A stretch of DNA of 63,841 nucleotides, counting the filler, from Cystobasidiomycetes sp. EMM_F5 (taxonomy: Eukaryota), in assembly GCA_051047955.1 (NCBI GenBank). It is 3 parts of 3 records of this genome, joined end to end, with 100 filler letters (N's around TTAATTAATTAA, not from the genome) between each part and the next. Parts side by side here need not be neighbours in the genome. Positions count along the whole stretch, not along the records: positions 29,646 to 57,644 come from JBPGPT010000069.1; 2 more parts are not named here. The stretch is one strand, 5' to 3'. Made by a program: the position numbers and the translations under genes. This document shows positions 36,042-55,400 of this stretch, piece by piece. Position 1 is the first letter of the stretch, and each line of letters starts with the position of its first letter. Below the pieces are notes generated by a model. The model saw only the letters and a list, made by a program, of their open reading frames with translations, had not been told where the DNA came from and ran no database searches.

Positions 36042-36846
36042 AATAGCCTGTATATAAGTAATACAATGGTACTACTGTCCAATCCTATCTCCTTTGCGTA
36101 GTCCAGCTTAGGCCTGTAGTTTATGAATCTGCGCAACCCTCACACCAAATCCAGGAGCACCCGTATGCAAAGCTGGGGCGGCGAGTCAGCCGTACAGGGC
36201 CATGTCGATGAGAGACATGGCACACTGCCGTTGCTATTGTTGACATGATAGGCTGCGCCTGAGTGGGGGAGGGCAGAAGCACAATCGATCAGCTACGATT
36301 GTCTAGACGTAAATATAACGCGATTTACATGTGCTACTTCACCGTGTGAAGATCCTGTGTAGATGTAGCAGAGCCTAGCATGTGCATCGAGACCGTATTT
36401 ACACGCATGACTTTACACAGAGAACAGGCTAGTAGGACCACTAGCAGACGAGTATCCGTAAAACTACCGAAAGTACGCCAACTCTAGCGTGGACAGACTA
36501 ATGCAGACCTCTGATTTCACTGAACGTCGGTACATTTACTACAGGCTCGGGATGTTTACGCAAAAGGAGAGACTAACCGTGAAAACGAGGAGATTGTATG
36601 ATTGGAAGTCTGCAGGGGCGAGCACAAGCGATGTCAGAGCCTCTTGCCTTGCAGAGGGTTGACGTATTCAAAATACTTACGGAAAGATTTGAAAGCTGAG
36701 CGAGGAGACAATGCGGCGAGCAGAGACGATGAGAGTCTCATGCCAAAGGCGCCATCGGGGAAACAGAAACGGTGTGGGGATTCTCGCTGCTGCATGTAGA
36801 ATGCCGAAGCCAGCAGAGTGGTAGCGAGCAGGACGGGCACGTACGC

Positions 36847-39800
36847 TCAAAGTGGGACAAGGCCAGTCTTGGAATACGGAGAAACACTGACTGTCGGCCA
36901 TTGAGGAATGAGATTGCCAGAGTAGTCTGCAGTGTGGCGATGTCGCTGGTCGACGTCGTTGCGGCTGAGCCTGAGTGGAGCACGAACAGCCGGTGTTGAC
37001 CGTGTAAGCAGTGCGCGCTCCTCGACGCCCTCTCTCAGAGGAATGACGTAGTGTTTGCCGCCATCGCTGGAGATGTGCTGGATGTTACAGTCTGCTACGA
37101 CGACATCGGCCTCTTCGGCGTTGTACCCGAGTTCGCTAATGATTTCCGAAAGGTAGGGGAACCCTGGTGACACTCTCATGTCCCGAATGATTCCCTCGGG
37201 CATGGGTCGCACTGTTGATGCGGTCGACGCCGACGATGCAGAGGTCGATGAGAGACCTACTGCAGCCGATAGCGGTTGCCAGCCTACGGTGTGTGTGCGG
37301 GGAGCCGGAGAGGTACTGGATGGGCCCTTTGACATATACGCCGCCATTCCGAAAGGATCGTCTTCGTCATCGTCGTCGTCGTTGTCGTCGTTGTAAGTGG
37401 ATTCAAAAGTCTCCCGCTTCCTCTGCCTGCTCTTTTTGCCCCGCCTACGTCGCTGCGATTGAGCGGGCATCTCATTCACCGGCGGCTGGGCCGGAGCTGC
37501 CTCTGCGAGTCTGAATTAGCCAGAGGTATCGCCATGCTAACGGACGACATGCTCACCATTCGTTGAACTACCGAACAACTGGCCGTAAGCTACCCTGCGA
37601 CGGTTGACTTCTGCGTCGGTATGGCGGGGTCTGGCGATGCTGCGAATCAACCAAAACAAAGCCCGTCGGCCTTCCTGATCAAGAATAGGTGCACTGTCCA
37701 AGCCGGGAACCATTAAATACAGTCGTTCGATGCAGCAACTGTACATGCAGCCTTGGAATTTGGCGATATAGCCTGGGTCTTGCAGATATGGAGCTCCGAC
37801 GTGCCGACCGACGCTGAAGGAATTGACGAGCCATAGCTCTTTGAGATTGTGCAATTCTTCGACGAGGCAGAACCAAGAGAGACACGGCATGTCTTCCACG
37901 ACCAGTTTTGTGATGGTTTCGAAGGCAGGGATATACCAATGGCGTACAAAGTCCGTCCGGAACAGACCGACAGGGTCGTAGTAAGGACCTCCAACGAGAA
38001 CCAAGCTTGTAATACCGCGACACGAGGAGAGAAAGTCGAATAGCATCCACTCGTACACATAAGGGACGACGCTGTCCTCGAGGCGGGAGCAAGAGTGCTG
38101 TACGCGAAAATCCAGTGACAGACTGTGGAGGAGAACATACGCGCGAGATTTTGTCGAAGGATAGTCGGAAATGTAATGCCTCCATTGGGTATCAAACTGC
38201 TGCGGCGTACCTACGATGCCCGGCATGTTGTATCGCTCGCCAAAATCCCGGATGTATGCTTTGGGGTATAATGGCCCCGTCTCGCCTTTTCCGTCGTTGT
38301 ATAGCCGAAGGACAGACAGCAGAGACTCAAAGGCATCGATGGAGCGGATTTTGAGCGAGATACCTTCGGAAACAGACCCTCTCCATTGCAGATTCCAAGC
38401 ATTTGGCCGCTTGATAGCATGCAATGCTGCCAAGATGTTCCAGCTTCCCAAAGATATTGCCAACAGCGAGCTGGAGCGAGCTTCCCACGTCGACAGAGTG
38501 TCGCTGACTGTAGTGCCGCGCCAGACAAGAGTTGAGCGCTCAAGAGCGGCTCCGTAATTGGAAGCTGCGTCGTCTGGGTGAGAGGCTACGCCGTAAGTGA
38601 GCAGAGCTTCTGATGGGAACGGGAATCCTAGGTGCAACAAATCGTCCAACACGAGCCTAAGCCCATGATCTTCGACGACGTTGTCTATATGTACTCCGGC
38701 ATAATGCGGCGTCTCGTGCGATTTTGGATATCGGTTATGCAGATTGAAGAAGATGGCCTCGCGTATCTGCACGAATTTTGGCAATGGATTCAAGAAACGT
38801 AGGCTATCCCAGTCGGATTTGAGGGTGCTCGTTGGATATTGCGATGGCGACGCCTCAGGGGCTGCGGAGAATGCAGTGGGTCCAATGCGTGACTGTACGA
38901 GTGTGAGTGCGGCAGCGGCAGCTCGAGATGACGGCTTTGATGGAATGATGTCGACATCTACGGCCGGTTTTCCAGCAGTGCTGCCTGAATTGAGAGCTAC
39001 TTTGGCGGAGGCTCCTGGTGTCGATGAGAGACATTGTTCACCTGCCGGTTCGCTGACGGTCGAAGGGATGCGGGACACAACAGGAGAGTCGACGGGCTCC
39101 TCGAGTGACAATGTCGATGAGAGACATATGTCTAACCCGCGAGCCAAATCAGCGGAGCCCGTCGATGAGAGACGACTTGCCGATATGGAAACTGTCGGTA
39201 GTGTCTCGCACTCGACGACATGTTGTACTGTAGCGACGGCCTGTCGGGACGCATTAGATTAGTGAAAAGCTGGTTGCCAATAGTAACGATAACGGACCGC
39301 CTGTTTGCCGACGGGCAGTTTCAACGTTGGAGAATGTATAACCGAGCTGGCCGGTGTGGGCAAAGTATTGCTTGAGCTGCTGCTGCTTTGAGAGGTGGAC
39401 CTATCTATGGCGACCGATGAGGGGAAACTGTGATAGCAAAGCTCATCAGCTACTAGAATTGCGAAAGTGTACTAAAGCACGTACTAATCCTCGGGACTAC
39501 ATTCATGGAAAGTATCATGCGACGCGTTGCTGGGAGAAGGCGGCAGACGCAGTCCAGATTTGTCGGCTGTAGAAGGCAAGGGGGTGAGAAATCTAGACAG
39601 GCCGAGCGCGTCTATGTCTTGCTGGGATAAAAGGGCGGGCCAGAGGATTGCGGGCTCGCCCATTCCCGGAAAGTCTGATGGGAGTGGCCGAGCAGCTCCA
39701 GGGCGTGTTTTGATCCATGCTATGAGACCGAGTCGCAGGCAAGCACTAGCTGCTGCTCTAGCAGCGGCGTCCCTCGTACGGAAAACATCGCCGGGGTAAG

Positions 39801-40952
39801 CGCCCACTTCGAAGACGTCGCCCAGAGGTCCACGGACTTGCAGGACTGGCCAGTAGGCGTTGACTTTTCCTTGCGTAGCGGCAGACGATTCTACTTGATG
39901 CAGCCGTTTTTGACCACGGATTGTCGCTGGTTGAGCCGGCTGCTGGGTAACGGACGGAGTCCACTGCTGAAACGCAGAGTAGTACAAGTGTGCCCCTTCA
40001 CTATCATAAGCAAGGGATACATGACCCGCAACGACGTGATAGCGAAAGTCAAAGTCGGGCATAAGTTTTGAGAGGAGGAGCATAACGAAGGGAGCGTTGC
40101 AGTACCCGGGGATGACATCGTCGATGAGGGACGGTTGCCATGTAGGAGATGTGCAAGTGAATGGTTCCTCCCTAAACCGTGTCACCATTCTTTGCTCTGC
40201 CTCGCTGTAGACCATCTTGTCGCAATCGCGTCCCACAGCTGATTGTCGGCACAAATAGCCGCCCATGTTGCGGCGTTCTTTCCGGGATATAGGCGCCATT
40301 CGCCTGCCGGGCCGAATTCTATGATAATGCACGGACACGGCTGACCTTCAACGTCCTCTGACATGCTCGTGGATATGTATCGGCGGAAATCGAGCGGGCA
40401 CAATCTCTTGTATCGATCCTCACACAGGTTCCTTGGGGGCGTAAGGTCTGATAATCCTACTATGAGACTGCTGACTAGGCGCCTGAAGGTAGCCTTTACG
40501 GCCTCTTTCGTTCCTGCGCCTGTCGACATCGCGATGCGGTCCCAGCCATCGGCATTGGAGACGCCTGCGAATGTGTGGAATGACACGCTGGGAGACGCGA
40601 GATAGGTTGGCATACCGGTGGAAGTGGTGTGCCGCAGGACGACCAGAGACGTCTCCACACAGACATTTTCCTCTTCAGGGAGCGAATCCTGTACCGTTTC
40701 CTGCAAATCGGCCAAAAGAGTGGAAGGCGAGGGATCGACGTCGTTGGGCGGCGCTGACGCATGGTAGATTGCAGTGCGTTGGCCAGTCGCCTGGGATTGT
40801 ATCATATGCATGACTTCACTTGTAGCGGTTCGGCCCAAAGACCCCTTTTCGAAGACATGGGTCCACAACTCAATTGCATCTTGGCCAGTCAGAAGGGCAC
40901 CGTCTACATAGACATCTATGCTATTGGCTGCCAGCTCCTTGATTTCTGCCAT
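36847..40952 (-). pseudogene. Unknown large protein, copy A (dsRBD-like + LRR/RNI-like + conserved C-terminal block); frameshifted near 40215
   Basis: ORFs 40182-40952, 39484-40338, 37537-39147 and 36847-37479 are joined by in-frame introns 39484-39428, 39297-39241 and 37556-37503; collinear with copy B. Confidence 0.75.
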
Positions 40953-41369
40953 TCTCAGAGACGAGCGGAGAACGCGTGGTGACTTCGATGAGAGAAGTGC
41001 ACTGAGCGGTTAGGGGGTAGTGCGGCCTGTTCAACTTCGATGGGAGAAGTGTGATACAGGTGTGCAGAGGGCGGGGTGGGATGTTTGAGCTGGATTGTTC
41101 GAATCTTGAGTGGCGTGCTGTAAAGACGGGTCGAGATTAGCGGATGTAAGAACAAATGGAATGGGAGAGCGTCGTCGATGGGAATCGGATGGTGGAGAGT
41201 AGTGGATCACTGGCTACTACTCGCCGTCAGTCCTGCTACGGTGACTCCCGAAATAAATCGAGTGCAAGGCTGAGGGGGGACATGACGAACACGACAGAGT
41301 AACGAGCGACAGCAGATGCAGACACAGTCACAGCACTGTCGATGAGAGACAGTGCTGTGCTATGCCTAA

Positions 41370-41370
<1 letters not shown>

Positions 41371-41410
<40 letters not shown>
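41371..41410. repeat. (CTG)13 microsatellite
   Basis: Read directly; the paralogous position 48387-48401 has about 5 units. Confidence 0.95.
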
Positions 41411-42779
41411 GCCTGGCCTGCCTTTGCCTGGACGGTGAGTTTGTTTACTCACCTGGCGGGACGGAGGGAAGGGGAGGGAGGGCGAGTTTGGTATCGATAT
41501 GATGCTGCTGACGGTGGTATCGTAATGCTATAGCTGCTGCTGATGGTTGTCGTCGGTCGTCGCTTGCAGGCGGTCGAGTGAATTGGTGGTTGAAAGAGAG
41601 AGAGGGGCAGGGAAGGGGCTGGTAACTGATGACCGCGTACCGGCGACAGAACGACAGAGAGCATGGATATGATTCAAGGGCAGCAGTCAGTAATCACCAC
41701 GAATGCTAGTCAGCTGCTGCTACGCGTCTCTCATTGACGCTGGCTGCAGTTGGCAGCGTCGAGCTCGAGAAGGCGGTGAGTGTGGAGAGGAGGCACGGCG
41801 AGTGTGAGGAGCGTGTGGGACTAAACTACTACGTGTCAGTGTCAGTCCTGATCCCTGCTCTACATCTTCTGCCAGCTCGGCCTGGACGGTATAATCGCTC
41901 TTCTCCATTGTGGCACTCTGCAAGCGACCAAGGCTCCCGGACGACATGTGATGCATTGTACTGACTAGAGAGCTAATGCTATATGCTACAACGAAGAAAC
42001 TGAGCTCCCTCCCGCAATTTCCCGTACTGCCGAATCTGGCAGGTGGGGCTACCCCTGAGCAGATTTTACGCGTCTGAAGGAGCGGAGACGCGTAAACTCC
42101 ACTGCTAATACTCACTCTTGGGTGGAGCTGCTCTGCACCCCACCTGTGACTTTCTATCGCTACTTGCTGCTGCTTCGTGCCGGACGTGTAGCAAAAGCCC
42201 GTACGACGGCGTGGAGCGGGCAAGGAATGGCGGATAATGAGCGTAGGCTGCAGTGTGCTGTCCGCAGGTGTACTGTCTCTCATCGACAGAGTAGCCGGCT
42301 CGCGAGGAGCTGGTATGTTCGGCTGGACATTGGGTGCGGTTGCGGACAGGGTTCACAATCGTAGCGAATGCCAGCAATGTTGTAGCAAGACCAGAGGAGA
42401 GCCCAATCGCCTAGTAATGCCAAGCAAAATTGGATTCATTGGCCTACAACACTGACATCCGTGCTAAAAGCGAGCTACACTGACAGAGACTGGTGAACCG
42501 AATTTAATGACAGAACTACTGAACAGAGACTTTCCTGCGAGTACAATGGCAAAACGCTACGAACGGATACTGTGAAGCTGAAGCTGCTGACAGTGTTACT
42601 CGTGTATGCCGGAATGCGGAGACGATGAGAGTCTCACGCACTAAGCCGGCTGAGGGGAAGGCGGAGAAATAGAAGCTGGACCATAAGAGCGAATTAGAGG
42701 GATCGGGCTATCTAAGCTGCCTACGTAACTCTACTCACTATGGGAGGATGCTGACGTAACAGCAAGAGAGGGGCAGCAT

Positions 42780-45700
42780 CTAGATCCAGCCGTCGTCTTC
42801 GGTATTGTACGGTGGTGGCTGATTGATATTGTTGTAATTAGTTTGTCCCCAAGTCGACGTGCTGTGATGCTGAGTATTGTAGCCATGAGAGGCAGTCGGA
42901 GGGTACATAGTGCGAGCAGACTGCTGATGGCGATGACTGGATCCATGTTGACGGTTGTCGGAGTAGCTGTGGTAGCTGCCTGGATTGTGATGATAGTTTC
43001 CGCTGCCATTGTTCCCGTAGTAGCTCCCAAACTGTCCGGCTGCATGTTGAGGAGGAGCTTCATTGAAGTGGGCAGACGTATACGGGGAAGATGCATAGCC
43101 ATTATACGACGACGAAGGGTGGCCTGAGTGGGACGTAGACGACTGCAGAGCGTAAGACTGAGGGCGTGGCTGAGCAGTGGTATGCCACGAGTCTTTGAAG
43201 AGGTTTGGCGCATTACTCGGACGACTGGCAGGGTATGAGCTACGGCCATTGGATCGGCGATTCGAATTGTTGGCTTGACTGATTCTAAAGGCCTCTTCAA
43301 CTGACACGTAGGGCGACACGTCCCTTTCGGGATGTTGGGGTATCGCTTCAGCATCCGTAGGGGCGAACCTGGAGTCGCTTTGGTGCTGAATGTCTACGTC
43401 TAAGCGAGTCATAAGTTTTGCGTCCGACTGCACTTCGCCCAAAGGACGAGTGTAAAGAGCCCTCTCCAGTACTCCTGGCCGTATGCTGGAATGAACGTAA
43501 AAGTCTGCATCGGATGGCGAAATGTACTGAATGTCGCAGTCAGCTACGTTGACGTCGAAAGCCTCGCCAGGAGAAGACAATTCCTCGATGAGCGCTGCGA
43601 TATGATTGAAGCCGGCCGATATACGGACGCGACGCAGGACATGAGGACCTATCTTGGGTATCACAATAACCGGGGTCGATGAGAGACCCACTGGCATGTT
43701 GCTATTCCCTGCAAACGACTTCTTGGACGGGCGGTAAAAGTCGGCATCCAATTCGCTGTCCGATGAAGTATCGTCGTCTGTGCCCTGTCTCTTCTGTGCA
43801 ACCTTCTTGCGCTTTGAAGCCGCTTTCGACGGCGCAGGACCAGTTACAGCATTGCCTAGGCCATCGGTGAGACCGACAGGCTGTCTTCAACTGACACGTA
43901 GGGCGACACGTCCCTTTCGGGATGTTGGGGTATCGCTTCAGCATCCGTAGGGGCGAACCTGGAGTCGCTTTGGTGCTGAATGTCTACGTCTAAGCGAGTC
44001 ATAAGTTTTGCGTCCGACTGCACTTCGCCCAAAGGACGAGTGTAAAGAGCCCTCTCCAGTACTCCTGGCCGTATGCTGGAATGAACGTAAAAGTCTGCAT
44101 CGGATGGCGAAATGTACTGAATGTCGCAGTCAGCTACGTTGACGTCGAAAGCCTCGCCAGGAGAAGACAATTCCTCGATGAGCGCTGCGATATGATTGAA
44201 GCCGGCCGATATACGGACGCGACGCAGGACATGAGGACCTATCTTGGGTATCACAATAACCGGGGTCGATGAGAGACCCACTGGCATGTTGCTATTCCCT
44301 GCAAACGACTTCTTGGACGGGCGGTAAAAGTCGGCATCCAATTCGCTGTCCGATGAAGTATCGTCGTCTGTGCCCTGTCTCTTCTGTGCAACCTTCTTGC
44401 GCTTTGAAGCCGCTTTCGACGGCGCAGGACCAGTTACAGCATTGCCTAGGCCATCGGTGAGACCGACAGGCTGTCCAGGCTGAGTAACAGGGCGGTCGAA
44501 GAGTGGGCCATATGCTGCTCTGCGCCGGCGTACTTCAGCCGCCCCGTGACGTTGAAAGCCTATGCTCCTGAATAACCAGTAGAGCATCGCTCGCGCATTG
44601 TCGTCCATCGACCAAGCGTTGTCGAGACCGGATACTTCAAGTCGCAGCGACTCTATTCGACAATATTCGAGACGCCCTGCTGCCTTGGGAACGAAACCAG
44701 GGTCAGGTAAGCTGACAGCGCCTACGCTACGACCTGTCGAGAAGCAGTTGATTAAGGTAAGGCGCGTGATGTTTTGCGTTAGATTCAAGAGACAGTGCCA
44801 GGTTTGATAAGGCATGTCTCTTATGGACAGGGTGGTGAGGGTTTCCTTGCAGCCGATATGCCATGCGTAGACGAAATCTTCTCGAAAAAGGGCGACGGGA
44901 TTGTAGAAGGGACCGCCGACAAGATGTAGCGATTGCAAGCCGACTACGCACGACAAGAAGTCGAAGAGCATATGCTCGCTTACGTATGGAATTGTGACTT
45001 TATCCAGTGCCGAGCGTTGATGCTGAATGCGGAAATCTATGGCCAATTTGTGCAGTAGCACATAGGCTCGCCCTGCTTTAACGTAGCCCCCGCTGATGAA
45101 CTTCCACCACTCGTCACGAAATTGCTTTGGAGTTCCCCATATGCCCATCATTTGAACTTGGCTGCCGTAATCTTGGAGGTAAGCTTTGGGGAAGAGTGGA
45201 CCCGTCTCTCCTTTGCGGTCATGGTATAAACGTAGGACTGCCAGCAAGGACTCGAGTGCGTCGATGGACCGCAGCTTCAGAGCAATGCCTGTGTCTGCTG
45301 AACCGCTCCACTGAATATTAAACGCGTTTACGCGGCGGATGGAATGTAGAGCGGCCAGGATGGACCAATTGCCCAAAGAGATTTTGTCCAAAGCGGCTGT
45401 CCTTACTCCCCACGTTTCTAGCGTCTCCTTTGTCTGACTACCTGTCCATACGAGTGTCTGTCTGGCGGAAACAGCACCGTAGTTGCGGGCTGCATCGCTC
45501 GGTGGAGATTCCTCGCCGTAAGTGATGAGCGTTTCGCGAGGAAAGGGAAAAGGTAGTGTGAGCCGCTCATCGAGTGTAGCTCGCAGCGCTATGTTGTTGA
45601 TTACATCGTCGATGTGCACGTTTCCGACATCTAGTACTTCGTCTTTGCGGGGATAACGGTTGTGCATCGAATGGAAGATGGCGCTACGTGCGTCGATGAA

Positions 45701-47967
45701 TGTGGGGAACTTTACGAGCGGACTGAGGAGCTCCCAGTCGGATTGGATAGTGCTCGTAATCCCGGAGGGGTCGAACGGCAAGGGAGGGGGAGCGAGTAGA
45801 ATCCTAGACGCAGCAGAGATAGCTGTACTGGATGCAGTTGCCGCTCTTGCTGCTAGGTCGACTGGGACGTGCCCGGTGAGCTTCATGCCAGGCTTCCACT
45901 TGATTCTCCCCGACTTTGAAGCTACTGAGGCCGATGCTACTGATGTCGATGAGAGACATTCTTCGCTAGCCGGTTCACTGACAGTGGATGAGACGCAAGG
46001 GATCGAGACAGTATCATCTAGTCGCGGAGAAGGCTTGCTTGGTGATGGCAATGTCGGTAACGTGCTCGTTTCCTGTTCAAGTACATCGCCAGCTACTAAT
46101 GTCGATGAGAGACATGTTTCGCTGGGTAGTGCTGTCACTGCAGCTGCCACTGATGTCGATGAGAGACACTTTTCGCTTGCTGCGGTGATAGGAGGAGACT
46201 CTGGACGAGTAGCGGTTTGGTGCTGCGGGAAGCCAAAGTCAGCGTAGGCGGTATGAACGAATTTGGGTAAAACGCACAACTACTGCCACAGCCGGTGAAT
46301 AGGATGCCTCGCTGCCGCTCCAGTCGAGCTCTTCCGTGTCCACGTCCATGCTATGGGCAACTGACATAACTGGTGCTCTGAAAAGAACAAAACGAGTCAG
46401 TGGATTGGAAAAAGCGGTGCATCATGGCTTACTTTACTGCATTCTGTGCAGGTGGTGACTGGGGCGTGGGCGGTTCGTCTATATCCATTGATGAATCTAA
46501 TTGTGGGCCGGCTGCCAAAGACTGGGCGGGCTCAGCCGCAAAACTCTCGCTGAGCGGCGTCAGAGGCGAACTAGGCGTAGGAGGAAAGGGAGCCGATTGA
46601 ACAGAGGGGGGTGTGTATGGCACTAGAAAGTCTGCTAGTCCCAATGCGCTAATCTCAGCTTCGGTGGCAGCTGCTGGCCAGCGGTTAAGCGGCGGTCCTG
46701 TACCCGGGAAATCGACGGGGATGGAATGGGCAGTGCTTTGTAGTCTCCTGACCCAGCCTACTAGTCCGAGTCTCACGGCGGCGTTCGCAATCGCCCTTGA
46801 TGCGAGTTCACGTGTTCGAAACACTTCATTCGGACCAGCTGCAACCACTAAGCAGTCTCCCAAGGGACCGATGATCTCGAGGAGGGGCCAGTATGCGTTG
46901 ACCAAACCGGAGGTATGCTGTGAAGCGGCATTCTGGTACGCTCGATGAGCGGCACGGCCCGTATTTGCTGTGGTAGATGTAAACGTGGACGGAGTCCATG
47001 ATTCGTATGGAGCCAAGCGTGCTTCGTGCGGATCAACTGTTTGGTCGATGTAATAGTAGCCGGCGACAACGTGGTAGCTGAATTGAACGTCGGGCATGAG
47101 TTTTGAGAGGAGGAGAATAATGAAGGCTGCGTTGCAGTACCCGGGGATAACATCGTCGGTGAGAGACGGTTCCCATGCGGGGCTTGTCCAATTAGCGGGT
47201 GCACTCCTAAACTCTGCGACGATTCTCTCTTCTGCTCCGGTTGGTGAGTAAAGGTGGTTCGCTATAGCCCAGTAATCGTCCTGCTGAAGCGCGTTGGTCC
47301 ATGCTGCCGCATCGTGTCCCGGTACGATTCGAAGATGTGGTGGGTCGGGGCCTACAATCATGCAGATTGAGCCTTCCGTCAGGAATAAGTGGGTACGTGG
47401 GTCCAGCGGCACGACACGCTTGAAGCGATCTGTTACTTGATTTCTTGAAACAGAGGTAGGTGGAGGCTGTACGCCGAACATCTGTCCGAGACCTCTCAAC
47501 GTGGCCTTGATTTGCTGTTTCGTATGCACGCCGGGCGTCATAGCAATGCGATCCCAGCCTTGATCGTTGGCTGTCACGCTGTTGTAAGTGTGATATGCGA
47601 CGCTGGGTGTGGTGAGAAAAGTGCGAACACCGCTAGCGGGTGTCAGATGCACTGTCAGCTGACCTATCGTAATCTCGCGGCGTTGCTGCCTATGTTCATC
47701 GGCTTCGAGGCTGGACCGGATGTATTCCAGCTTGGTCAACGCTCGAGTAGGTGCGGAGACGGGATGGGGAGTGCTGTGAAAGAACTGCAGCCTTGAATCG
47801 GCCTGTTGCATAGTGAAAAGGTCTGTGATCTGAGCTCGGACATGTGCTGATATGCCTTGGCCGTCGAAAGCGGAATCCCACAGCTCGGCTGCATCTTGGC
47901 CAGTCAGAAGGGCACCGTCTACATAGACGTCTGTGCGACTGGCTACTAGCTCCTTGATTTCTGCCAT
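42780..47967 (-). CDS. Unknown large protein, copy B (same architecture plus a Y/N/Q/G/S/H-rich tail); frame broken by a 590-bp tandem duplication
   Basis: ORF 46429-47967 joins ORF 43856-46279 through in-frame introns 46432-46378 and 46277-46223; tail in ORF 42780-43751; shares MAEIKEL..DVYVDGALLTGQDA, DDVIPGYCNA..LLLSKLMPD and MLFDFLS with copy A. Confidence 0.75.
43294..44475. repeat. Apparently perfect 590-bp direct tandem duplication (43294-43885 and 43884-44475)
   Basis: Identical text at offset 590, identical ORF translations (43491/44081, 43679/44269) and a 2-bp TC microhomology at the junction. Confidence 0.97.
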
Positions 47968-50628
47968 TCTCAGAGACGAGCGGAGAACGCGCAGTGACTT
48001 CGATGAGGGAAGTGCACTGAGCGTGTAGGAAGGGGTGCAGCCTGTTCAACTTCGATGAGAGAAGTGTGAAGCAGGTGTGAGGGAGAGGAAGGGAGCGAAT
48101 GGCTGGACTGGCTCCGTCGTGCTGGAGTGGCGTGCTGTAAGACGGGTCGAGATTAGCGGATGTAAGAACGAATGGACTGGGAGGGCATCGTCGATGGGAA
48201 TTGGATGGTGGAGAGTAGTGGATCACTGGCTACTACTCGCCGTCACTCCTGCTACGGTGACTGCCGAGGTAGAGCGATTCCAAGGCTGACGGCGAACGCG
48301 GCGGAGGTGACGGACGGGCGAGCGGCAGCAGATACAGACACAGTTACAGCACTGTCGATGAGAGACAGTGCTATACTATGCCTGAGCTGCTGCTGCTGCT
48401 GCCGCTGCCCTGTCTGCGCTCATCATCTGAGAAGGGCGGGTTTGTTTACTCACCTGGCGGGACGGGAGCAAATGGAGGGAGGGCGAGTTTGGTATCGATA
48501 TGATGCTGCTGACGGTGGTATCGTAATGCTGGAGCTGCTGCTGGTGGTTGTCGTCGGTCGGCGCTTGCTGGGGGTCGAGTTGGTTGGAGTTTGAGGGAGA
48601 GGGGCGGGGAAGGGGCTGGCAGCTGGCGACTGCGTACCGGCGACGGAAGGACAGAGGGCATGGATATGATTCAAGGGCAGCAGTCAGTCATCACCACGAA
48701 TGCTAGTCAGCTGCTGCTGTGCGTCTCTCATCGACGCTGGCGGGGGCTGATGGAGTTGGGTGGGCGGGCGAGTGGAACACTGAGCAGGTCAAGGGAGGAG
48801 AGCAGCGGACGAGGGTGAATCTGGTACACGTTAATCAGTGCTTGGACGTGGCTGATCAGCTGTATCTGGACTGCGGGGCTGCCGGTGGTGGTCGCGGCTC
48901 AGCATCCCAATGGACGTATGCAGGGAGCACAGAGCAGGCTGAGCGGCAATTGGCAATGTGGTACTGACTATACTGATGCTACTGACTATCACTGAGTACA
49001 CTGTTCCCTCTCCCGTCTCCTCCCGACCTGCCGAATTTGGAAACGGCCGTACTACCCCTGAACGAGTTTCGACGCGAGTTACGATGCGGAGACGCGTAAC
49101 TTGGGTGTGATTAGCCTCACCGTGATGTGCACTGAGAGTATATGGTGTTGCAGGAGGTTTGAGCACTGTTTGACGGGTGTATATCTGACTGGCTATGACA
49201 AACAGAGCTGGGCGAGCCTACAACGGATATCTGAAGCCGTAACTGAAGCTATAGGCTGGTTGCAAGCGTGGTATGATGCTGCCGTGTGTGTGACCTGTCT
49301 CAGCTGGATGTCTGTCTCTCATCGACAGCTCCGAGCGGGATGGCGGGGCTAAACAGATGTGAGCGCCTATGGGGGTGAGAGGATGGGTAGAGAATGGCGC
49401 TGTGAGTGCCGAGGTGATGCTACTGCCTGTCTGATGTGACTGGTCGCTGATTTACGTGGAAACGGTGATGTTTGCGGCGATGAGGACTGTGACGGCTAGG
49501 CTAGCGTGGGACTGGAGCGTAAGCGGACGTAATAGATGAAAGTGCACTGTCGTTGTGCATAGTATGCATGCGTGTCGGGAAGCTGTCTGATGTCGTGTCG
49601 ATATCTGTCACTGTAGCTTGAAGTGGCTAGCTGGGTTGTCTGACGACTACAACATGGGAATACTATGAGACAACGGCGGACCTACTACAGTATGGTACTC
49701 TCTGTAATGCTGCTGCGGCCACTCCTGTCCTGGTCATGCCTCTCATCGGCAGCAGTGGGGGGTTGCATGAATGACTTGCCATGCGGGCCTGCACGGAAAA
49801 GCGACGGTAGTCTCGAGTAGGGGAGGGAGGACAGTGTATGCAGGCAGACTGCATCGTGGGAGATGGTTAAGCTACTGTCCGAGCTGGAATTGTCTCTCAT
49901 CGACAAACTGTGCTCGGCTGTACAGTAGTTTGGCTGGGGGGCTGGTGGTCTGGGTGAGCGAGCTATTTGCGCAGACTGACACTGATGCTGAGGATTGGGT
50001 ATACAACAGACAATTGCTACATCGTCGTGCTATACTCTATTGCGCTGCCTGGAGTCTTGCACTGTGTTATGGTCTCGTCTCGTTGGGGCTGTTTTGATTC
50101 TACTGGAACAGGGTAGAATGTCTCGAATCGCTGTCAGGTTGGAATACTAGCATATACTACCTACACACACTGCTCTCATCGCTGCTGCTGCTGTGTCTCT
50201 CATCGACACTCAGTGCTGTTGGTGGTTCTATGGCGTGCCTGGGTGGCAAACGTCGAAGGGCAACAGCGCCGTCAATAAACATCTTGGAGAGCTGGGAATT
50301 GCACTGAGTGGCTAGATACAACGTCTGAGGGTACTGTCTTTGCCTGCTTCGCTATATCGGTGCTGGTTGCTGTGCTGTTGGAGGTCCGAGCTCCTCAGTG
50401 AGGAAAAAGGACCGAAGTTGTTATCTCTGGCTACAGGAGTGCTGGAGATTTGCTGTTTGGTATGGAGATTCTTTGACAGTGCATGGCGATGCTCCGAGAC
50501 TTATACGCTCTTCCGGCTGCTGGGTTTTCTGCAATGCAGACTTGAAGTTTTCTCCCCATGTTTGCCACCAATTTTTGGACTTTGCCACCGGAATGGGGGC
50601 CCATTCCTGGCAGTATATAAGTAGGTTC

Positions 50629-51688
50629 CAGAGTGTCCGTAACTCACGCACGAGACACTCTGGAGGCGGGAGGTTCTGTGTACTGGATGTCAGCGCCCTT
50701 CAAGTCGTCTGCGATGGGCCAGCACCTGCGATATCCAACTTTTCTGTCATTGTCATGCAACTTGGGGAGGTCGGTGCGTTGGACCTGGTTGACGACGAAG
50801 CTCTGCGACTGCAATGCTGATGCTGCTGCTATACACAGATATCATTGTTTCTTGACTGTCTTTCTGATTGTAGGTGCTGAGCTTGTTATGATGTCTGGCT
50901 GGCCCGTCTGCCTGACGAGAGTGGACTGACTTTGAATGACAGAGCTAGTCTTTTCGGAAGTGGTTGCTCGCTACTTTGCTGCGGTTCTCAATATATATGA
51001 TGGATCTCTCTCCGTGTTCTGGCTCTTTATCTCCGCCTTCCCCTGCTTGCGATTCCGTCTATGCTTTTCGTGCGGTCCAGTCTATTATGACGATAAGCAT
51101 TGCTGATAACGCTCCATGCTGTCTACAGCCTTGCTACATTCACTCTATCGCTGGCTTCTCCCATCTACCTTCTTTTGAGATGACTGCGACTATTACTTCG
51201 GTTCGAGAGCTATGACACGGATCAGGAGACGGTAGAAGGACATGGAGGATGGGCCTAGACGTGTGATTTGAAGTAAAGAGTTGATATTGGTGCGCCCTGA
51301 TGATGACTACATGGTCTGCCTCGCTGGGTGTAACTCACGCACATCCAGCGAGTGCATGATCTGGCTTTGCCGTCATCAACAATGAGCTAAACTGCGGACT
51401 CCCGACCTGTGATTACAGATTCGAAGCAAGGACACACGGCATCGACGAATGTACGGCTACCCGACTACTGTCTTGAATACGGTTGTCGACGCTTTGCTTA
51501 TTCTCCACAACGACCTCGGCTGCTACTACATCAGTTCAATCATCGACACTGTGTGCGAATCTATCACATCAACACACTCTCCTCTCCATCGTCTGTGCAA
51601 CTCACGCGCATAGACTCGTAAGTCGTATACACTAGTAACTCACGCACTAGGTGTACGCAGGGCTACACGTAATTCACGCACGTGTAGC
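50629..51688 (+). repeat. Stem-loop family 2: five hairpins with 9-nt loop AA(C/T)TCACGC and unrelated 8-13 bp stems
   Basis: 50629-50663, 51320-51352, 51591-51615, 51624-51657 and 51662-51688. Confidence 0.9.
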
Positions 51689-52439
51689 TGGCGGAGGATG
51701 CTGATGGTCTTTGATATACGGATAGCCAAACTATGGGTCGCGTCTCTGCTTCTCCACCTTTGGTTGCTGTGTTTGGTACAGCTGTGGTGGTGACTTGCGG
51801 GGCATTCTGGGAGGCAATACTACGGGTTTACAACGTTGGCTTAAGACTGTACACTGGACACCTGCTCTGCTTGATTGGCTATGCTACACAGTATTGCTCT
51901 GCCTCTATGCTGGTGGCGGAATACAGCGACTTGACTTGACTTCATCGGATGGCTACGAAACTTGGTATACATATAGTTCACTTCTCTTACATTGCTATGA
52001 ACATGCCCGGATGACTGGAAACATCTCTGCCTGGATGCTGTTGGTGGTATTATGTTCGTGCCTGGCTGTGCCTGGCTGTGCCTGGTGGCGACAGCGGCGT
52101 ACAATAACTCTGTCAATATACATCGTCGGCAGCTATAAGTCTGCACTGAGATTCTTCATAACATTTGAAGCAACTTTGTCTATTCAGTTTTCTTATATCG
52201 CTTCTGGTTTGGCTGCAATTGAGACTTTTAGCTCCTGAGTGAGAAAATTGGGCGAATCGCTGTAGCTCAGTCAGTATTAACGCTGGAGATCTATAAGTCT
52301 CGCCTGAGATTGTTCTGCTATGCTACAATCATGCTTGCTTGTCTGTTTGTCTTTAGCGGCTCTAGTTTTTGTGCAAATGAGACTTGAAGTTTTTCAGTAA
52401 CGATCAGGCACAGCGCCCATAAGTTCTCACTTTCTACAT

Positions 52440-55400
52440 TATATGAGTAGGGGTAGCCTTTCCAGTGTACGAAGTAGTCTAGTCGTCCGTGATTGAGTCG
52501 AGAGTCAAGTGTCTTTTCGACGATGTACTTGGGTGTGCCGTTCTCGACGATGGGATCGGGAGGGGGAACGACCATGCGTTGCGGATGTACATTAGAGACA
52601 TACTTCTCGAGAAGGGACACATGGAAGGTAGGGTGAATGCGCATAGTACCGGGAAGGAGGAGGCGGTAAGCTGAGGAACCAATCTTCTTATCGATTTCGA
52701 ATGGTCCTAACTTCTTAGCATCGAGTTTGGAGGAAGGACGAGAGGTGGAGATGTTTCGACGAAGGAGCCAGACTTTATCGCCAGGTTTCCAATTGGGAGC
52801 GGGGAGGCGACGTTTGTTGGCCCATAGACAGTGTTGAGAGTGAGCATGAGCGATAGATTCTTGCGCGAACTCGTGAGCTTTGTTAATTCGTACAAGTCGC
52901 TTCTCAATATCGGGAACAGAACAATCATCAGCAGTAAGCGATAGTCTAGGATGATACCCATGGTTGGCATAGAAAGGGGACATGCCTATAGTCGAATGAT
53001 GTGTAGAGTTGTAGGCAAATTCGGCTATAGGGAGGAGGTCGACCCAATCATCTTGCAGGTAATCACAAAAGAGGCGAAGGTGTAGCTCGACTGATTGATT
53101 AGTGCGTTCCGTCTGTCCATCGGTCTGAGGATGAAAAGCGGTAGAGAGAGCAGGCTTGACTTTGAGCATGGTGATGAACTCGGTCCACCATTCGGATGCG
53201 AAGGTGGTTCCACGATCAGAGACTATATCATTTGGCAGACCATGTAGCTTCCAGATATTGTTAAGGTACTGACGGGCAAGATCGCGAGAAGTATCGGTAG
53301 CTTTGGTTGGAATGTAGTGTGCCATCTTAGTTAGTCTATCAACGACGATCAAGATGCTATTGTATCCTTGGCATCGAGGCAGGTCGGTAATATGATCCAT
53401 GGAAAGGGAGAGCCAAGGTCCTTTGGGGATGGGAAGAGGCTGAAGCAAACCATAAGGGCGATGATGAGCGGCCTTACTTCGCTGACAAGGGTCACAGGAG
53501 TTTATGTAGTCATTGATGAAAGCTCTCATGTTCGGCCAATAGTAGTTGCGGCGAATGATCTCAAGAGTCTTTGCTTGACCGGGGTGTCCTGTCTCCATTG
53601 AGTCATGAGCTAGCTGGAGGATGCTGACGCGTATAGTCTCGTAGTTCGGAACATAGATTAGGCCACGAGATAGGAGGATACCGTCATTGCTAAGTGTCCA
53701 GGCTGGATCAATGGAGTCCCGATTGGCTTCAGGATCTTGGAGTACGGCGAGGATGTCATCGAGGGCAGGATCACGTTGCTGGAATAGTTTGATATCGGGT
53801 AACAGACGTGATACGGAAGAGTGCAATGTGACTGCCGAGATTTCGAGAGGACGAAGTAGCTGCAGTGGTTCGGTTTCGCTAGCTTTTCCCCCCGCTGCAA
53901 AATCGGGACGACGAGATAAGGCATCAGGTTTACCGGACTGATCACCCGGACGATACTTGATAGTATACTTGTGGTGATTGATGATCTCTGATCAACGAGC
54001 TTGACGACGAGTGAGAGTCTTCGACGTCTGGAAGTATTGAAGAGCTTGGTGGTCGGTCAATATGGTGAACGGTAGTGATAAGCCTTCGAGATAGTGTCGC
54101 CAGATCTTTACAGATTCGACAATTGCAAGGAGTTCTTTATCGTGTATTTCATAATTTCGCTCGGCGGGGTTCATTTTACGAGACATGAATGCAACCGGAC
54201 GCAAGACAGTGCCGTGATACTGAGATAATATACCGGAGATTGCGTAGTCGGATGCGTCTGTCTCAATGAGGGAGGGTAGGGCGGGATCATAGTGCGAGAT
54301 GACTTGACCCAAGCTGAAAGATTCCTTTATCGAATTGAAAGCAGAGCGAGCAGGCATGTCGAATTCGAACTTGACTTCTTTGCGCAGAAGACGAGTCATA
54401 GGAGCGATGATGCGAGAGTAACCCTTAATGAACCGGCGGTAAAAGTTTGCGAAGCCAAGGAATTGTTGTAGCTCGCGTACTTTAGTAGGTTCGGGCCAGG
54501 ACATTACAGAGTTAACCTTATCTTGACACATGGATACACCTTCGGGAGTGATGATGAAACCGAGGAACTCAACAGTAGTGACGTTGAAGACACACTTGTG
54601 ATTTGCAGCATACAAGTTGTTGTCAATCAAACGCTGGAGTACCTGGCGGACGTGAAGGGTATGTTGCTCAGGAGTGTCGGAGAAGATAAGGAGATCATCG
54701 AGGTAGATGAGAACGCAAACGTCGAGCAAGTCTCTGAACTTGTCGTTCATGAAATGTTGGAAGACTGCAGGAGCATTTGTGAGACCGAAAGGTATTACAA
54801 GGCATTCGAAGTGACCGTAACGAGTGCGAAATGCTGTTTTCCATTCGTCACCTTCCTTAACGCGGATGAGGTTGTAAGCTCCACGTAAGTCAAGCTTGGT
54901 GAAGATGCGAGCAGATCGTAGGCGGTCGAGAGCTTCGGGGATGAGCGGTAGAGGATATCGGTTCTTTATTGTAATATTGTTAAGAGCACGATAGTCTACG
55001 CAGAGCCTCAGCTCGCCGGACTTCTTCTTGACGAAGAGGATAGGAGCGCCGGCGGGAGACTGCGAAGCACGAATGAAGCCTTTAGACAGATTCTCATCGA
55101 GCCAAGTTGACAAGGCTTGAAGCTCGATTGCGGATAAGGAATAAAGTGGACCGTAAGGAGGTTGCTTGCCAGGCTCGAGATCGATAGATAGATCATATGG
55201 TCGATGAGGTGGCAGCACATCCGCTTTAGCCTTTGAAAATGCTGAGAGGAGGTCATGATACTCAGACGGAATGACAGCGCGCAGCGTATCAACGAAGTCT
55301 GGAGGGTCAGTCATATCATCAGGGAATGGAGCTGCCCTAAGCTCATCCGAGGAGATAGCGCTGAGCTCGAGAGACTTCTCCGAGTACATGAGAGTTCCGA

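Follow-up and report, generated by a model that had tools for sequence, protein, structure and literature searches.

The window analysed here, a stretch of 63,841 nucleotides, consists of three concatenated contigs, and the joins at 29546-29645 and 57645-57744 are artificial linkers, each with TTAATTAATTAA between two runs of 44 N. The analysis concerns one genome, that of a cystobasidiomycete yeast, and 28 kb of it. Since the hairpin island described below has a contig of its own, the DNA of the window beyond 29646-57644 is not the genomic neighbourhood of the island. A Ty3/Gypsy element adjoins the island, and the island contig is short and bounded by repeats. The locus is nuclear-type DNA with a retrotransposon adjacent. 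The genes and units of the island are as follows.

29646..57644 (27,999 bp), no strand: contig bearing the hairpin island, flanked by linkers on both sides
31516..29726, minus strand: orphan ORF P596 of 596 aa, with hairpins at 30917 and 31344
33420..32044, minus strand: orphan ORF P458 of 458 aa, with hairpins at 32182, 32832 and 33235
36728..42310, minus strand: tandem unit A (3′ hairpin at 36728, ORFs, 5′ block and upstream DNA)
37479..36847, minus strand: unit A ORF of 210 aa
39147..37537, minus strand: unit A ORF of 536 aa
40952..39484, minus strand: unit A ORFs of 284 and 256 aa, a frameshifted copy of the 512-aa gene
42600..49350, minus strand: tandem unit B (3′ hairpin at 42624, ORFs, 5′ block and upstream DNA)
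43751..42780, minus strand: unit B ORF of 323 aa
46279..43856, minus strand: unit B ORF of 807 aa
47967..46429, minus strand: unit B ORF of 512 aa

No Pfam, PDB or database relatives were found for the island proteins, and no candidate hairpin-reader protein was found. Unit B contains an exact tandem duplication of 591-592 bp (43294-43885 = 43884-44475), and in the deposited annotation unit B is a single 1688-aa protein. Units A and B are collinear paralogues. Their genes show a dS of 1.8-2.6, a third-position identity of 37-39% and a dN/dS of about 0.2-0.4, and the transition/transversion ratio of 0.55-0.64 points to ordinary saturation.

It was found that about 37 copies of one hairpin with a 5-bp stem and a 7-nt loop (hereafter family 1), all within 30917-50204, mark every minus-strand orphan gene of one 19-kb block and nothing else in the window. 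The window contains 42 exact GATGAGA motifs; shuffled sequences have 14.2 ± 3.1, and 0 of 100 shuffles came to 42. The GATGAGA loop is present in 22 of the 38 perfect 5-bp/7-nt hairpins inside the island versus 0 of 44 outside. A relaxed scan of the window gave 41 sites, 37 of them in 30917-50198; the remaining four are weak, chance-like sites in the first contig, none of which (0/4) has the C-G closing pair together with a full stem.

The element is 19-21 nt in length, and its consensus in the GATGAGA sense is Y R N N G/T T/N C [GATGAGA] G A/N C/A N N R Y. The helix has exactly five base pairs with an invariant closing C-G and a free outer stem sequence, and a purine-purine mismatch beneath the stem terminates it. 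In the 36 non-redundant copies (the exact duplicate at 44268 was left out), stem pairs 1 to 4 are Watson-Crick in 36, 36, 34 and 36 copies, and pair 5 is Watson-Crick in 25, G-T in five and A-C in three. Pairs 2 to 5 thus vary in sequence yet mostly remain Watson-Crick (36, 34, 36 and 25 of 36), while pair 6 is Watson-Crick in only 6/36 and purine-purine in 22/36. The same counts bear out an earlier note on this DNA in that G-T wobbles occur in both senses. A 9-nt core is invariant and the adjoining GTC/GAC is largely fixed; stem variety is narrow, mostly NNgtc. The loop plus one stem arm makes 12 nt, or four codons, and the TCTCATC sense is stop-free in all frames. In the N-terminal part of the 807-aa ORF, a 31-nt module holding a hairpin is locally repeated three times (45948, 46104 and 46158).

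The hairpin scan divided the island into the same orientation blocks, with exactly the same coordinates, as the earlier note had given.

30912..41359, plus strand: hairpin block 1, 19 copies (30917-41341), spanning ORFs P596 and P458, a run of short ORFs, and the unit A ORFs and 5′ leader
41360..41723, no strand: flip segment A, within the conserved non-coding block 40863-41744, containing a (CTG)n run, a minus-strand pyrimidine-rich tract and two GGTATCG motifs
41724..42289, minus strand: flipped block A, two hairpins, at 41729 (degenerate loop TCTCATT) and 42278
42619..48372, plus strand: hairpin block 2, 10 copies (42624-48357, the exact duplicate 44268 included), spanning the unit B 3′ region, ORFs and 5′ leader
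48373..48720, no strand: flip segment B, paralogous to flip segment A
48721..50209, minus strand: flipped block B, six hairpins, at 48726, 49317, 49741, 49895, 50174 and 50198, with which the hairpin-bearing region ends

Polarity is plus in 29/29 copies downstream of the conserved blocks and minus in 8/8 copies upstream, so that 37/37 obey. The idea that the motif is polarised relative to the flip segments was upheld, and minus-strand mRNAs would bear UCUCAUC loops from the leader through the ORFs to the 3′ region. Since 11 of the 29 plus copies are not in ORFs and those inside ORFs use all three reading frames, a coding filter cannot account for the polarity bias. The purine-purine flank turns with the loop: it is present in 16/28 plus copies (p = 0.0016) and 6/8 flipped copies (p = 0.0018), or in 11/19 and 5/6 when paralogues are collapsed. 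Together with the G-A/A-G loop ends, this flank would, on structural grounds, stabilise the GAUGAGA sense, which is antisense to the genes.

Base composition does not turn with the hairpins. GC skew is positive (+0.09 to +0.35) throughout both flipped blocks and unchanged at the flips, and (CTG)n remains on the plus strand. The 3-mer strand asymmetry correlates with that of the adjoining unflipped DNA (r = 0.85 and 0.67 for flipped block B, 0.35 and 0.50 for flipped block A) and negatively with plus-strand genes. No plus-strand coding potential was found in the flipped blocks. Since these blocks keep a minus-sense composition and lack plus-strand coding, a divergent transcript, if any, would be non-coding; their composition gives no sign of such a transcript.

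The flips fall in strongly constrained non-coding DNA of the units.

40863..41744, no strand: conserved 5′ block of unit A (paralogue 47878-48741 in unit B), comprising about 30 first codons and about 790 bp upstream
41118..41452 in unit A and 48135-48453 in unit B, minus strand: putative 5′-leader intron, from consensus only

The unit A block stops exactly at the first flipped hairpin. Identity between 40863-41744 and 47878-48741 is 84% by blastn (885 columns) and 83-85% in a MAFFT alignment. The start codons lie at 40952 (unit A) and 47967 (unit B), with the flip segments upstream of both. Across the flip segments identity is similar in all six reading frames, so that none stands out as conserved, and plus-strand coding scores there are negative. 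The alignment and these frame tests agree with the claim that the flips lie in paralogous, non-coding and strongly constrained segments upstream of large genes. The differences between the block copies (78 transitions, 47 transversions) are clustered like phylogenetic footprints, with an index of dispersion of 3.0-3.2 (reached in 0/5000 permutations). On the gene strand, the block has a pyrimidine-rich tract. At the 5′ end of the putative leader intron stands CAG|GTGAGT, and at the 3′ end ACAG preceded by a CTAAT branch-like site; both ends fall in fully conserved stretches. Clustered conservation, the pyrimidine tract and the conserved splice-donor/branch/acceptor set are promoter-like traits, and the conserved block may act as a promoter.

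The earlier note spoke of a flip at the same point in each duplicated unit. The shared position holds, but two separate events do not: judging from the collinear paralogy and the dS of 1.8-2.6, both flips go back to a single ancestral flip, which an ancient tandem duplication copied along with a unit of about 6 kb, namely the gene and at least 1.35 kb upstream.

All ten hairpin positions compared are common to both paralogous units. In four hairpins at homologous coding positions, 63/68 bases are identical (p = 9e-12), as are 21/23 third codon positions (p = 1.5e-7). Hairpins 42278 and 49317, a flipped pair, form a 16-nt identical island amid diverged DNA, and the internal flipped pair (41729 and 42278) has retained its stems beside unit A's own conserved block, in line with a function per unit. 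One of the differences among the four coding hairpins is a compensatory change from A-T to G-C between the stems of hairpins 37247 and 43678, and in a second compensatory change pair 12 of the long leader hairpin went from C-G to T-A between the unit copies. The native context also favours folding. For 25 native perfect hairpins in contexts of ±60 nt, the mean fold probability is 0.82 as plus-strand RNA and 0.91 as minus-strand RNA, against 0.52 and 0.56 for identical 17-mers at 300 random island positions (p = 1e-5 and 2e-7), and the family reaches 0.87 versus 0.49 for energy-matched chance hairpins. Fold probabilities of family 1 are alike in both senses. The two-sequence consensus fold gave -233 kcal/mol for the plus strand versus -174 kcal/mol, which says little about the strand because a G/U-rich strand yields that advantage anyway. 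As judged from these comparisons, purifying selection is maintaining the hairpin. Conserved against a saturated synonymous background, compensated and favoured in folding, the hairpins would be a selected single-strand element.

The hairpin looks like a new strand-specific signal linked to the direction of transcription. The reading tentatively preferred, at a little under an even chance, is that the hairpin acts at the RNA level and is read by a protein, with its polarity set around the conserved promoter/leader block of each unit. The hairpin would act in single-stranded form, with RNA as the substrate read co- or post-transcriptionally, and a putative reader protein would recognise the loop together with the stem geometry. 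Polarity would be fixed per transcription unit: the UCUCAUC loop lies on the mRNA-sense strand from the promoter/leader block downstream, and the element is inverted over 0.6-1.5 kb upstream of the conserved block. This block may be a bidirectional start region, so that outgoing transcripts in either direction would bear UCUCAUC hairpins, while transcripts heading toward the block (antisense through the genes, or upstream read-through) would bear the purine-rich GAUGAGA hairpin. If true, the signal would separate "own, outward" from "inward" transcripts for stability, export, translation or termination.

A single sense transcript could instead carry both loop types, GAUGAGA in its leader and UCUCAUC in the gene body, from a minus-strand start upstream of 50.2 kb or by read-through from the unit or retrotransposon above. 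In its favour, the flipped blocks have a minus-sense gene composition (GC skew; 3-mer r = 0.85, 0.67) without plus-strand coding potential, and several flipped copies fold better as minus-strand RNA (0.99 vs 0.05 for 49317). The fully complementary 7-nt loops, a match that grows to 17 nt wherever the stems agree too, could pair by loop-loop kissing or over long range, in one RNA or between RNAs, serving folding, dimerisation, packaging or a read-through block. A ctgtc/gacag stem is common to the leader hairpins 41341/48357 and the flipped hairpins 42278/49317, and the 17-nt complementarity is conserved in both units. However, stem diversity is small (mostly NNgtc), so that chance stem matches are expected, and the pyrimidine tract and splice-donor layout suggest that transcription starts within the conserved block, with the flipped copies lying upstream. 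A single transcript is doubtful, though it deserves some weight. A single-strand signal in DNA, for replication, transcription, recombination or transposition, with the flip as an origin, terminus or element end, is unlikely. Polar DNA motifs show strict strand polarity with a switch point, as does family 1, and a native context that favours folding of either strand fits DNA as well as RNA. Against this, minus blocks of 0.6 and 1.5 kb alternate with plus blocks of 6-10 kb, and replication-fork direction cannot switch on such scales. The pattern recurs per gene unit with the internal copy still constrained, GC skew is constant across the flips, no terminal repeats were found in a search for them, and the island shows no detectable Rep/HUH protein, transposase, recombinase or polymerase. 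The "replication/processing origin" of the earlier note is thus disfavoured by the short minus blocks, by the internal block still constrained beside unit A's own candidate promoter, and by the failure to find any Rep, HUH or other replication protein.

The same 17-21-nt element in unrelated genes and in all three reading frames might also be a selfish miniature palindromic insert, like Rickettsia palindromic elements or fungal mitochondrial hairpin elements, which spread through genes and spacers, was tolerated in frame and is now functionless. A loop and arm of four codons, a stop-free TCTCATC sense and the local tripling of the 31-nt module suit this idea. Nevertheless, it appears quite unlikely: the paralogous units show no presence/absence difference at the ten positions compared, the copies are undecayed despite saturated neutral sites, their stems are preserved by compensatory changes in a context tuned for folding, and the 37/37 polarity includes 11 plus and 8 flipped non-coding copies, which is beyond a coding filter. 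Duplex DNA sites for a protein recognising CGATGAGAG, such as a chromatin, silencing or centromere-type factor, with their orientation arranged around the promoter, would account for the invariant 9-nt core with its largely fixed GTC/GAC and for the island's place next to a Ty3/Gypsy element, on a short contig bounded by repeats. But outer stem pairs vary yet remain complementary with covariation, the purine-purine mismatch stops the helix at exactly 5 bp, and the flanks are selected for hairpin folding; since none of these matters for duplex recognition, such sites are distinctly improbable. Finally, simple local inversions of 0.6-1.5 kb turning ordinary plus-oriented hairpins, which the earlier note named among the things that would speak against its reading, would explain the orientation change itself only. 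GC skew stays at +0.09 to +0.35 throughout the flipped blocks, the 3-mer asymmetry is positive with the neighbours and negative with plus-strand genes, (CTG)n is still on the plus strand, inverted-repeat breakpoints were not found, and the arrangement is older than a duplication now saturated at synonymous sites. Local inversion is scarcely credible, and since composition does not turn with them, the hairpins are neither relics nor products of it.

Several known systems resemble the RNA-level, protein-read hairpin preferred here. Direction-defining asymmetries of promoters include the mammalian U1 site versus the poly(A) signal, the Nrd1-Nab3 sites of budding yeast and the multi-copy Mmi1 DSR hexamers of fission yeast. 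Like family 1, these are short RNA-level motifs in many copies that decide transcript fate, and their strand bias switches at the promoter or the motif marks a gene set. Those motifs are linear, 4-7 nt long and statistically enriched, and they differ between the two sides of the promoter, whereas family 1 is a structured 19-nt hairpin of all-or-none polarity (37/37), mirror-symmetric around the candidate promoter. Selfish palindromic mini-inserts are known as Rickettsia palindromic elements and as double-hairpin and GC-cluster elements of fungal mitochondria. They share with family 1 a small palindromic unit with variable stems, located in frame in ORFs and in intergenic DNA. Unlike them, family 1 is positionally conserved between ancient paralogues, under purifying selection and strictly polar, its copies are only 17-21 nt, and no presence/absence variation was seen between the units.

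In the parts of PMC6281560 and PMC5699041 drawn on here, the packaging signals of ssRNA viruses are multiple degenerate, dispersed stem-loops sharing a loop motif, which, as in family 1, are spread along one strand for kilobases, in coding and non-coding sequence alike. In contrast to that description (PMC6281560, PMC5699041), neither a capsid or replicase gene nor any other viral gene was detected at the family 1 locus, which is nuclear-type DNA with the element inverted in the upstream blocks, and the genes are two diverged paralogous units rather than one genome-length RNA. A precedent for the logic of the preferred reading is given by Smaug recognition elements (SREs), which, as described in the portion of PMC4053848 used here, are loops on non-specific stems, mostly ORF-internal, eight of them in Hsp83. 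Their loop is CNGG(N0-4) instead of GAUGAGA/UCUCAUC, and family 1 differs from that account (PMC4053848) in a stem fixed at 5 bp, a fixed closing pair, a purine-purine mismatch beneath, confinement to one gene block, inversion upstream of a candidate promoter and a reader that is only putative. The likeness of the Smaug/Vts1 SRE, within the same portion of PMC4053848, is a short stem-loop in which the loop motif is fixed and the stem sequence non-specific, in many copies per target mRNA, mostly ORF-internal, in sense orientation and read by one RNA-binding protein.

The heptamer GATGAGA occurs at 42 sites in the window, against 14.2 ± 3.1 in shuffled sequences, and is three times over-represented. 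The excess is confined to positions 30917-50204 (the island), where every site is part of a hairpin whose stem has 5 bp and whose loop has 7 nt. Perfect hairpins of this type with this loop number 22/38 in the island and 0/44 elsewhere in the window. A relaxed scan, allowing at most one loop mismatch and requiring at least four of the five stem pairs, returned 41 sites, of which 37 are in the island; the other four, on the first contig, are weak and chance-like. Apart from these four, the scan found no copies on the other two contigs, and it found none in the Ty3/Gypsy element to the right of the island.

The anatomy was analyzed in 36 non-redundant copies, the exact duplicate at 44268 being dropped. 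The closing pair is C-G in all 36. Pairs 2, 3, and 4 vary in sequence and are Watson-Crick in 36/36, 34/36, and 36/36 copies; pair 4 is T-A in 15, C-G in 14, G-C in four, and A-T in three. Pair 5 is Watson-Crick in 25/36, with G-T in five and A-C in three copies, a balance that agrees with the earlier note, which had reported wobbles on both strands and left the folding strand undecided. Pair 6 is purine-purine in 22/36 copies and Watson-Crick in just six. This purine-purine flank is present in 16/28 copies with GATGAGA on the plus strand (plus copies; p = 0.0016 against local composition) and in 6/8 copies with GATGAGA on the minus strand (flipped copies; p = 0.0018), or in 11/19 and 5/6, respectively, when paralogous copies are collapsed. 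Since the flank turns together with the loop, it belongs to the element. The loop is GATGAGA/TCTCATC in 29/36 copies, and each of the other seven is one transition away. The hairpin, which has an orientation, measures 19-21 nt and reads Y R N N g t C GATGAGA G a c N N R Y. When the loop is read in the purine-rich sense, its terminal bases (G-A...G-A) might pair as two sheared G-A pairs capped by a UGA triloop, with the purine-purine flank possibly stacked below the stem. Within 45940-46175, in the N-terminal low-complexity part of an 807-aa ORF (peptide ..E.CLSSTSVA..), three copies of a 31-nt hairpin-bearing module are present. Thus, hairpins can multiply when a larger module that contains them is duplicated locally.

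Identical artificial linkers (44 N, TTAATTAATTAA, 44 N) were found at 29546-29645 and 57645-57744. Thus, the window consists of three contigs in a row, and the sequences beyond the linkers are not genomic neighbors of the island, which lies on the middle contig (29646-57644, 27,999 bp). According to the genome announcement (PMC12697161), the genome was assembled with SPAdes from Illumina reads alone, giving 18.6 Mb in 253 contigs at a mean depth of 142x; the annotation is ab initio, with DNA reads only and no RNA sequencing reported, and no genome of a relative in the same family is public. The data analyzed here come from 28 kb of this one genome, and each paralogue comparison consists of two sequences. 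The only recognizable genes on the island contig are those of the Ty3/Gypsy element, which contain none of the GATGAGA-loop hairpins.

Recognizable genes in the right part of the island contig
57152..56004, minus strand, Ty3/Gypsy gag
55965..52318, minus strand, Ty3/Gypsy protease-RT-RNase H-integrase-chromodomain

Long terminal repeats of the Gypsy element and terminal repeats of the island were sought, and none were found. Between the GATGAGA-loop region and the integrase end of the Gypsy element, a second hairpin family lies on the plus strand at 50627-51688. It has a 9-nt loop, AAYTCACGC, with five exact occurrences within 1.04 kb and variable stems of 7-11 bp, two of which contain plus-strand G-T wobbles.

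Hairpins with the AAYTCACGC loop
50641, plus strand
51332, plus strand
51599, plus strand
51637, plus strand
51671, plus strand

At the other end of the island, the DNA directly upstream of a 596-aa ORF (region 31526-31700) has clustered GAAnnTTC repeats resembling heat-shock elements (31540-31653), along with two TGACGTAA-type sites. The same stretch has a TATAAAAG box at 31684 with a pyrimidine-rich tract after it; this box has the plus-strand direction, antisense to a 458-aa ORF.

The minus strand carries every long ORF of the island. Self-comparison revealed two collinear tandem units, A and B.

Tandem paralogous units of the island
about 36.7-42.3 kb, minus strand, unit A, ORFs of 210 and 536 aa, and a frameshifted copy of one gene as ORFs of 284+256 aa
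about 42.6-49.35 kb, minus strand, unit B, ORFs of 323, 807, and 512 aa

Unit B is a single 1688-aa protein in the deposited annotation. In unit A, the copy of the 512-aa gene (39484-40952, minus strand) has a frameshift that produces the overlapping 256-aa and 284-aa ORFs; both halves have dN/dS < 1 against unit B. The paralogues share 34-52% protein identity, with dS of 1.8-2.6, dN/dS of about 0.2-0.4, and third-position identity of 37-39%. Thus, the genes are real, and enough time has passed since the duplication to saturate neutral sites. The transition/transversion ratio of 0.55-0.64 rules out RIP-like hypermutation as the source of the divergence. Unit B also contains an exact tandem duplication of 591-592 bp (43294-44475, 100% identity), which copies one hairpin (43678 = 44268) together with the C-terminal domain and may be either a real recent event or an effect of short-read assembly.

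The island proteins are orphans. No homologues of the 512-aa protein were found, nor any match in the ESM Atlas, and searches with the 596-aa (29726-31516) and 458-aa proteins returned only the proteins themselves. When a profile built from the 807/536-aa pair was run against 1.84 billion representatives, it found three proteins, all of them gene models of the same locus. Pfam gave no family at E ≤ 0.01 for the 17 island ORFs and only noise at E ≤ 5, with one sub-threshold low-complexity hit, and a PDB sequence search with the island proteins gave nothing useful. The core of the 807-aa protein matched fungal F-box-like hypothetical proteins in the ESM Atlas (score 0.91, 119 shared features), which is below the level typical of true relatives and is only a weak lead. 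AlphaFold2 on the 512-aa protein with its paralogue gave an unusable model (mean pLDDT 34.5). The C-terminal tail of the unit B protein (42780-43300, minus strand) is a long low-complexity region rich in Tyr, Ser, Gly, Asn, His, and Gln and ending in ..EDDGWI. Such a composition is common among RNA-granule proteins.

I compared the hairpins between the units. Every unit A hairpin compared (n = 10) has a homologously placed partner in unit B.

Hairpin pairs, unit A and unit B
36728 and 42624
37247 and 43678
39023 and 45948
39116 and 46104
40123 and 47158
40987 and 48002
41039 and 48054
41341 and 48357
41729 and 48726
42278 and 49317

In the four pairs covered by protein-guided coding alignments, 63/68 hairpin bases are identical against a background of 55% (p = 9e-12), and third codon positions are identical at 21/23 against 38% (p = 1.5e-7). 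Two compensatory changes were found: at 37247/43678, one unit has A-T and the other G-C as the fifth pair, and in the long leader hairpin, pair 12 reads C-G in unit A but T-A in unit B. The ORFs stay open through the element in three frames (peptides ..LSS.., ..SLI.., and ..SHR..), and the use of three reading frames places the constraint on the nucleic acid rather than on the peptide. In windows of ±60 nt, the 25 native perfect hairpins have a mean fold probability of 0.82 as plus-strand RNA and 0.91 as minus-strand RNA. The same 17-mers moved to 300 random island positions reach only 0.52 and 0.56 (p = 1e-5 and 2e-7), and energy-matched chance hairpins of the window reach 0.49 against 0.87 for the family. 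Together, the conservation and folding results argue for a function in single-stranded form. As to which strand folds, the fold probabilities are similar in both senses; the two-sequence consensus fold is -233 kcal/mol for the plus strand and -174 kcal/mol for the minus strand, an excess that a G/U-rich strand gives anyway.

The orientation blocks are exactly those described in the earlier note: plus at 30917-41341, minus at 41729 and 42278, plus at 42624-48357, and minus at 48726-50198. All 37 copies obey this rule. The GATGAGA sense carries TGA in one frame, so that some orientation bias might come from coding. Such a filter is ruled out as the source of the polarity, since 11/29 plus copies and all eight flipped copies are outside ORFs and are equally polar; the other 18 plus copies are inside the minus-strand ORFs. 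The same note had remarked that the polarity flips at the same point in each duplicated unit. Two flips do lie there, but they are not independent: because the unit duplication is collinear and ancient, they represent one ancestral flip copied along with the unit. Local inversion, which the earlier note had named as a refutation of its reading, would have turned the surrounding DNA as well, and I regard it as barely conceivable. The background features do not flip with the motif: the GC skew is positive across both flipped blocks (+0.09 to +0.35), (CTG)n remains on the plus strand, and self-comparison found no inverted-repeat breakpoints. The 3-mer asymmetry of flipped block B (48721-50209) correlates with that of unflipped leader DNA and gene bodies at r = 0.85 and 0.67, and that of flipped block A (41724-42289) at 0.35 and 0.50; against the plus-strand genes of the first contig, the values are -0.40 and -0.11.

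What lies at the flips? About 880 bp, from codon 30 upstream, are 83-85% identical between the units (40863-41744 in unit A, 47878-48741 in unit B); the coding DNA next to them has 44-55% nucleotide identity. The high homology ends exactly at the first flipped hairpin. Farther upstream, the DNA is diverged but alignable to about 42310/49349, with small conserved islands including the flipped hairpin 42278/49317. Another hairpin is common to both units in this diverged DNA (42065-42096/49077-49101, 7-11 bp around GGAGACGCGTAA). Within the conserved block, the differences are clustered (index of dispersion 3.0-3.2; 0/5000 permutations as high), and 20-nt windows with 9-13 differences adjoin windows with none. 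The clustering indicates footprint-like constraint rather than one recent conversion tract. Recent gene conversion is unlikely as the sole cause, given saturated windows beside identical ones; mosaic conversion is possible.

Features of the conserved block in gene-strand order, upstream to downstream (splice signals by consensus only)
minus strand, first flipped hairpin
about 41625-41590, minus strand, pyrimidine-rich tract
minus strand, GGTATCG motif, twice repeated
41453|41452 (unit B 48453), minus strand, perfect match to a CAG|GTGAGT donor
minus strand, (CAG)n run
minus strand, leader hairpin, 12 bp in unit A and 9 bp in unit B
ending at 41118 (unit B 48135), minus strand, CTAAT branch-like site and ACAG
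minus strand, two further hairpins, 35 and about 87 nt before the ATG

By its consensus motifs, the block reads like a putative start region followed by a spliced leader; sense transcripts would then begin after the last flipped hairpin and before the first unflipped one. The putative leader intron contains a further hairpin common to both units (41197-41222/48213-48238) with a 7-bp stem and a 12-nt loop. Coding is not apparent here: the frame of an apparent upstream ORF is not conserved between the units, a six-frame comparison of the flip segments (41360-41723 and 48373-48720) found all frames about equally similar, and no coding potential was found on the plus strand of the flipped blocks. 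As expected for a bidirectional promoter, a conserved non-coding block of regulatory type is present between two polarity domains.

I tentatively favor, at somewhat less than even confidence, a promoter-centered hairpin signal at the RNA level, whose polarity is set around the presumed start region of each unit. The hairpin would be a transcript-borne signal, and a protein reader would measure the loop sequence and the 5-bp stem. Yeast promoters commonly fire in both directions. If the start region does so, every outward transcript would carry UCUCAUC hairpins, and inward transcripts, namely antisense through the genes, read-through of unit B into A, and read-through of Gypsy into B, would carry the complementary purine-rich GAUGAGA hairpin. 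The main rival, which I consider unlikely, is that one sense RNA spans both polarity domains and that the complementary loops pair. The unchanged strand composition of the flipped blocks suits such a transcript, but the start-like features are positioned unfavorably for it.

Less probable again is a single-stranded role at the DNA level. The earlier note had offered bidirectional promoters or replication/processing origins; promoter-centered polarity is plausible, the repetition of the flip is explained by duplication, and an origin is unlikely, with minus blocks of 0.6 and 1.5 kb alternating with plus blocks of 6-10 kb. The internal flipped pair next to the conserved block of unit A has persisted since the duplication. 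Pfam detected no initiator, transposase, or recombinase in the island, and rolling-circle replication is not indicated, there being no Rep/HUH or initiator gene and 37 copies rather than one or two. That the hairpins are selfish inserts without function ranks slightly lower. Selfish palindromic inserts occur in frame within unrelated genes, and the island hairpins resemble the Rickettsia palindromic elements (RPE), DHE, and GC clusters in their in-frame presence inside unrelated ORFs. Unlike them, however, they are positionally conserved, under selection, and strictly polar; 10/10 positions are common to units A and B, so that there is no presence/absence difference, and neutral decay is not seen. 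A duplex binding site is very improbable, as the hairpin conservation and the fold-favoring context argue against it and against a decaying relic.

The hairpin is a conserved, structured, and strictly polar element within the coding sequence of orphan fungal genes. Structured cis-signals under measurable purifying selection are rarely seen in eukaryotic coding sequence; inside these hairpins, third codon positions have stayed fixed in genes that are otherwise saturated with change. Orphan and seemingly featureless fungal genes can thus share a strong regulatory grammar that is invisible to protein-based annotation. The all-or-none polarity, mirrored round a conserved putative promoter block, would make a clean and small study system (a culturable yeast with two paralogous units and a single 19-nt element) in which to ask how cells sense where a transcript comes from or which way it runs, and how loop and stem length are read by a protein. 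As a speculation that I think rather unlikely in its full form, the island might use a transcription-direction code of a previously unknown kind in a fungus. A 19-nt structured RNA tag mirrored round each promoter would be read by a dedicated protein, possibly island-encoded; outward transcripts would be accepted, and antisense or read-through transcripts with the purine-rich hairpin would be terminated or destroyed, shielding a retrotransposon-flanked tandem block from interference and RNA silencing. Beside the idea of an island-encoded reader, it may be mentioned that the large unit B protein has a Tyr/Ser/Gly/Asn-rich low-complexity tail. If the element acts at the DNA level or is selfish instead, it would be the first known miniature palindromic element of such a kind in a fungal nuclear genome; I know of no other.

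Known structured elements were compared with the hairpin. Rfam gave no matches at E ≤ 1 for 29646-57644, and there are no tRNA genes in the window. By the usual consensus sequences, a tRNA anticodon arm is rejected because the loop has no U33 and R37 in either sense, an Ire1 cleavage loop because C at -3 and G at -1 are missing, and box C/D or K-turn, hammerhead core, and SECIS because their motifs are incompatible with a 7-nt loop. A two-hairpin pattern searched against public DNA found three metagenome loci and one viral locus, one contig being in both sets; these are tandem coding or AT-rich repeats with a palindromic 13-mer in two to three copies, have no variable-stem family, and are not relatives. 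Literature searches found only unrelated small-RNA papers for the loop motif and nothing relevant or comparable on hairpin motifs in this fungal group. The dispersed packaging signals of single-stranded RNA viruses (PMC6281560, PMC5699041) are likewise many hairpins sharing one loop, but no capsid, replicase, or other viral gene was detected on the island contig. The nearest known system in logic is the Smaug/Vts1 recognition element, which has a fixed loop, a non-specific stem, and many copies mostly within ORFs (PMC4053848). The island hairpin has no CNGG(N0-4) loop in either sense of GATGAGA/TCTCATC and thus is not a member of that family, which a SAM-domain protein binds. The likeness lies in stems that are variable yet paired and in multiple sense-orientation copies within ORFs.
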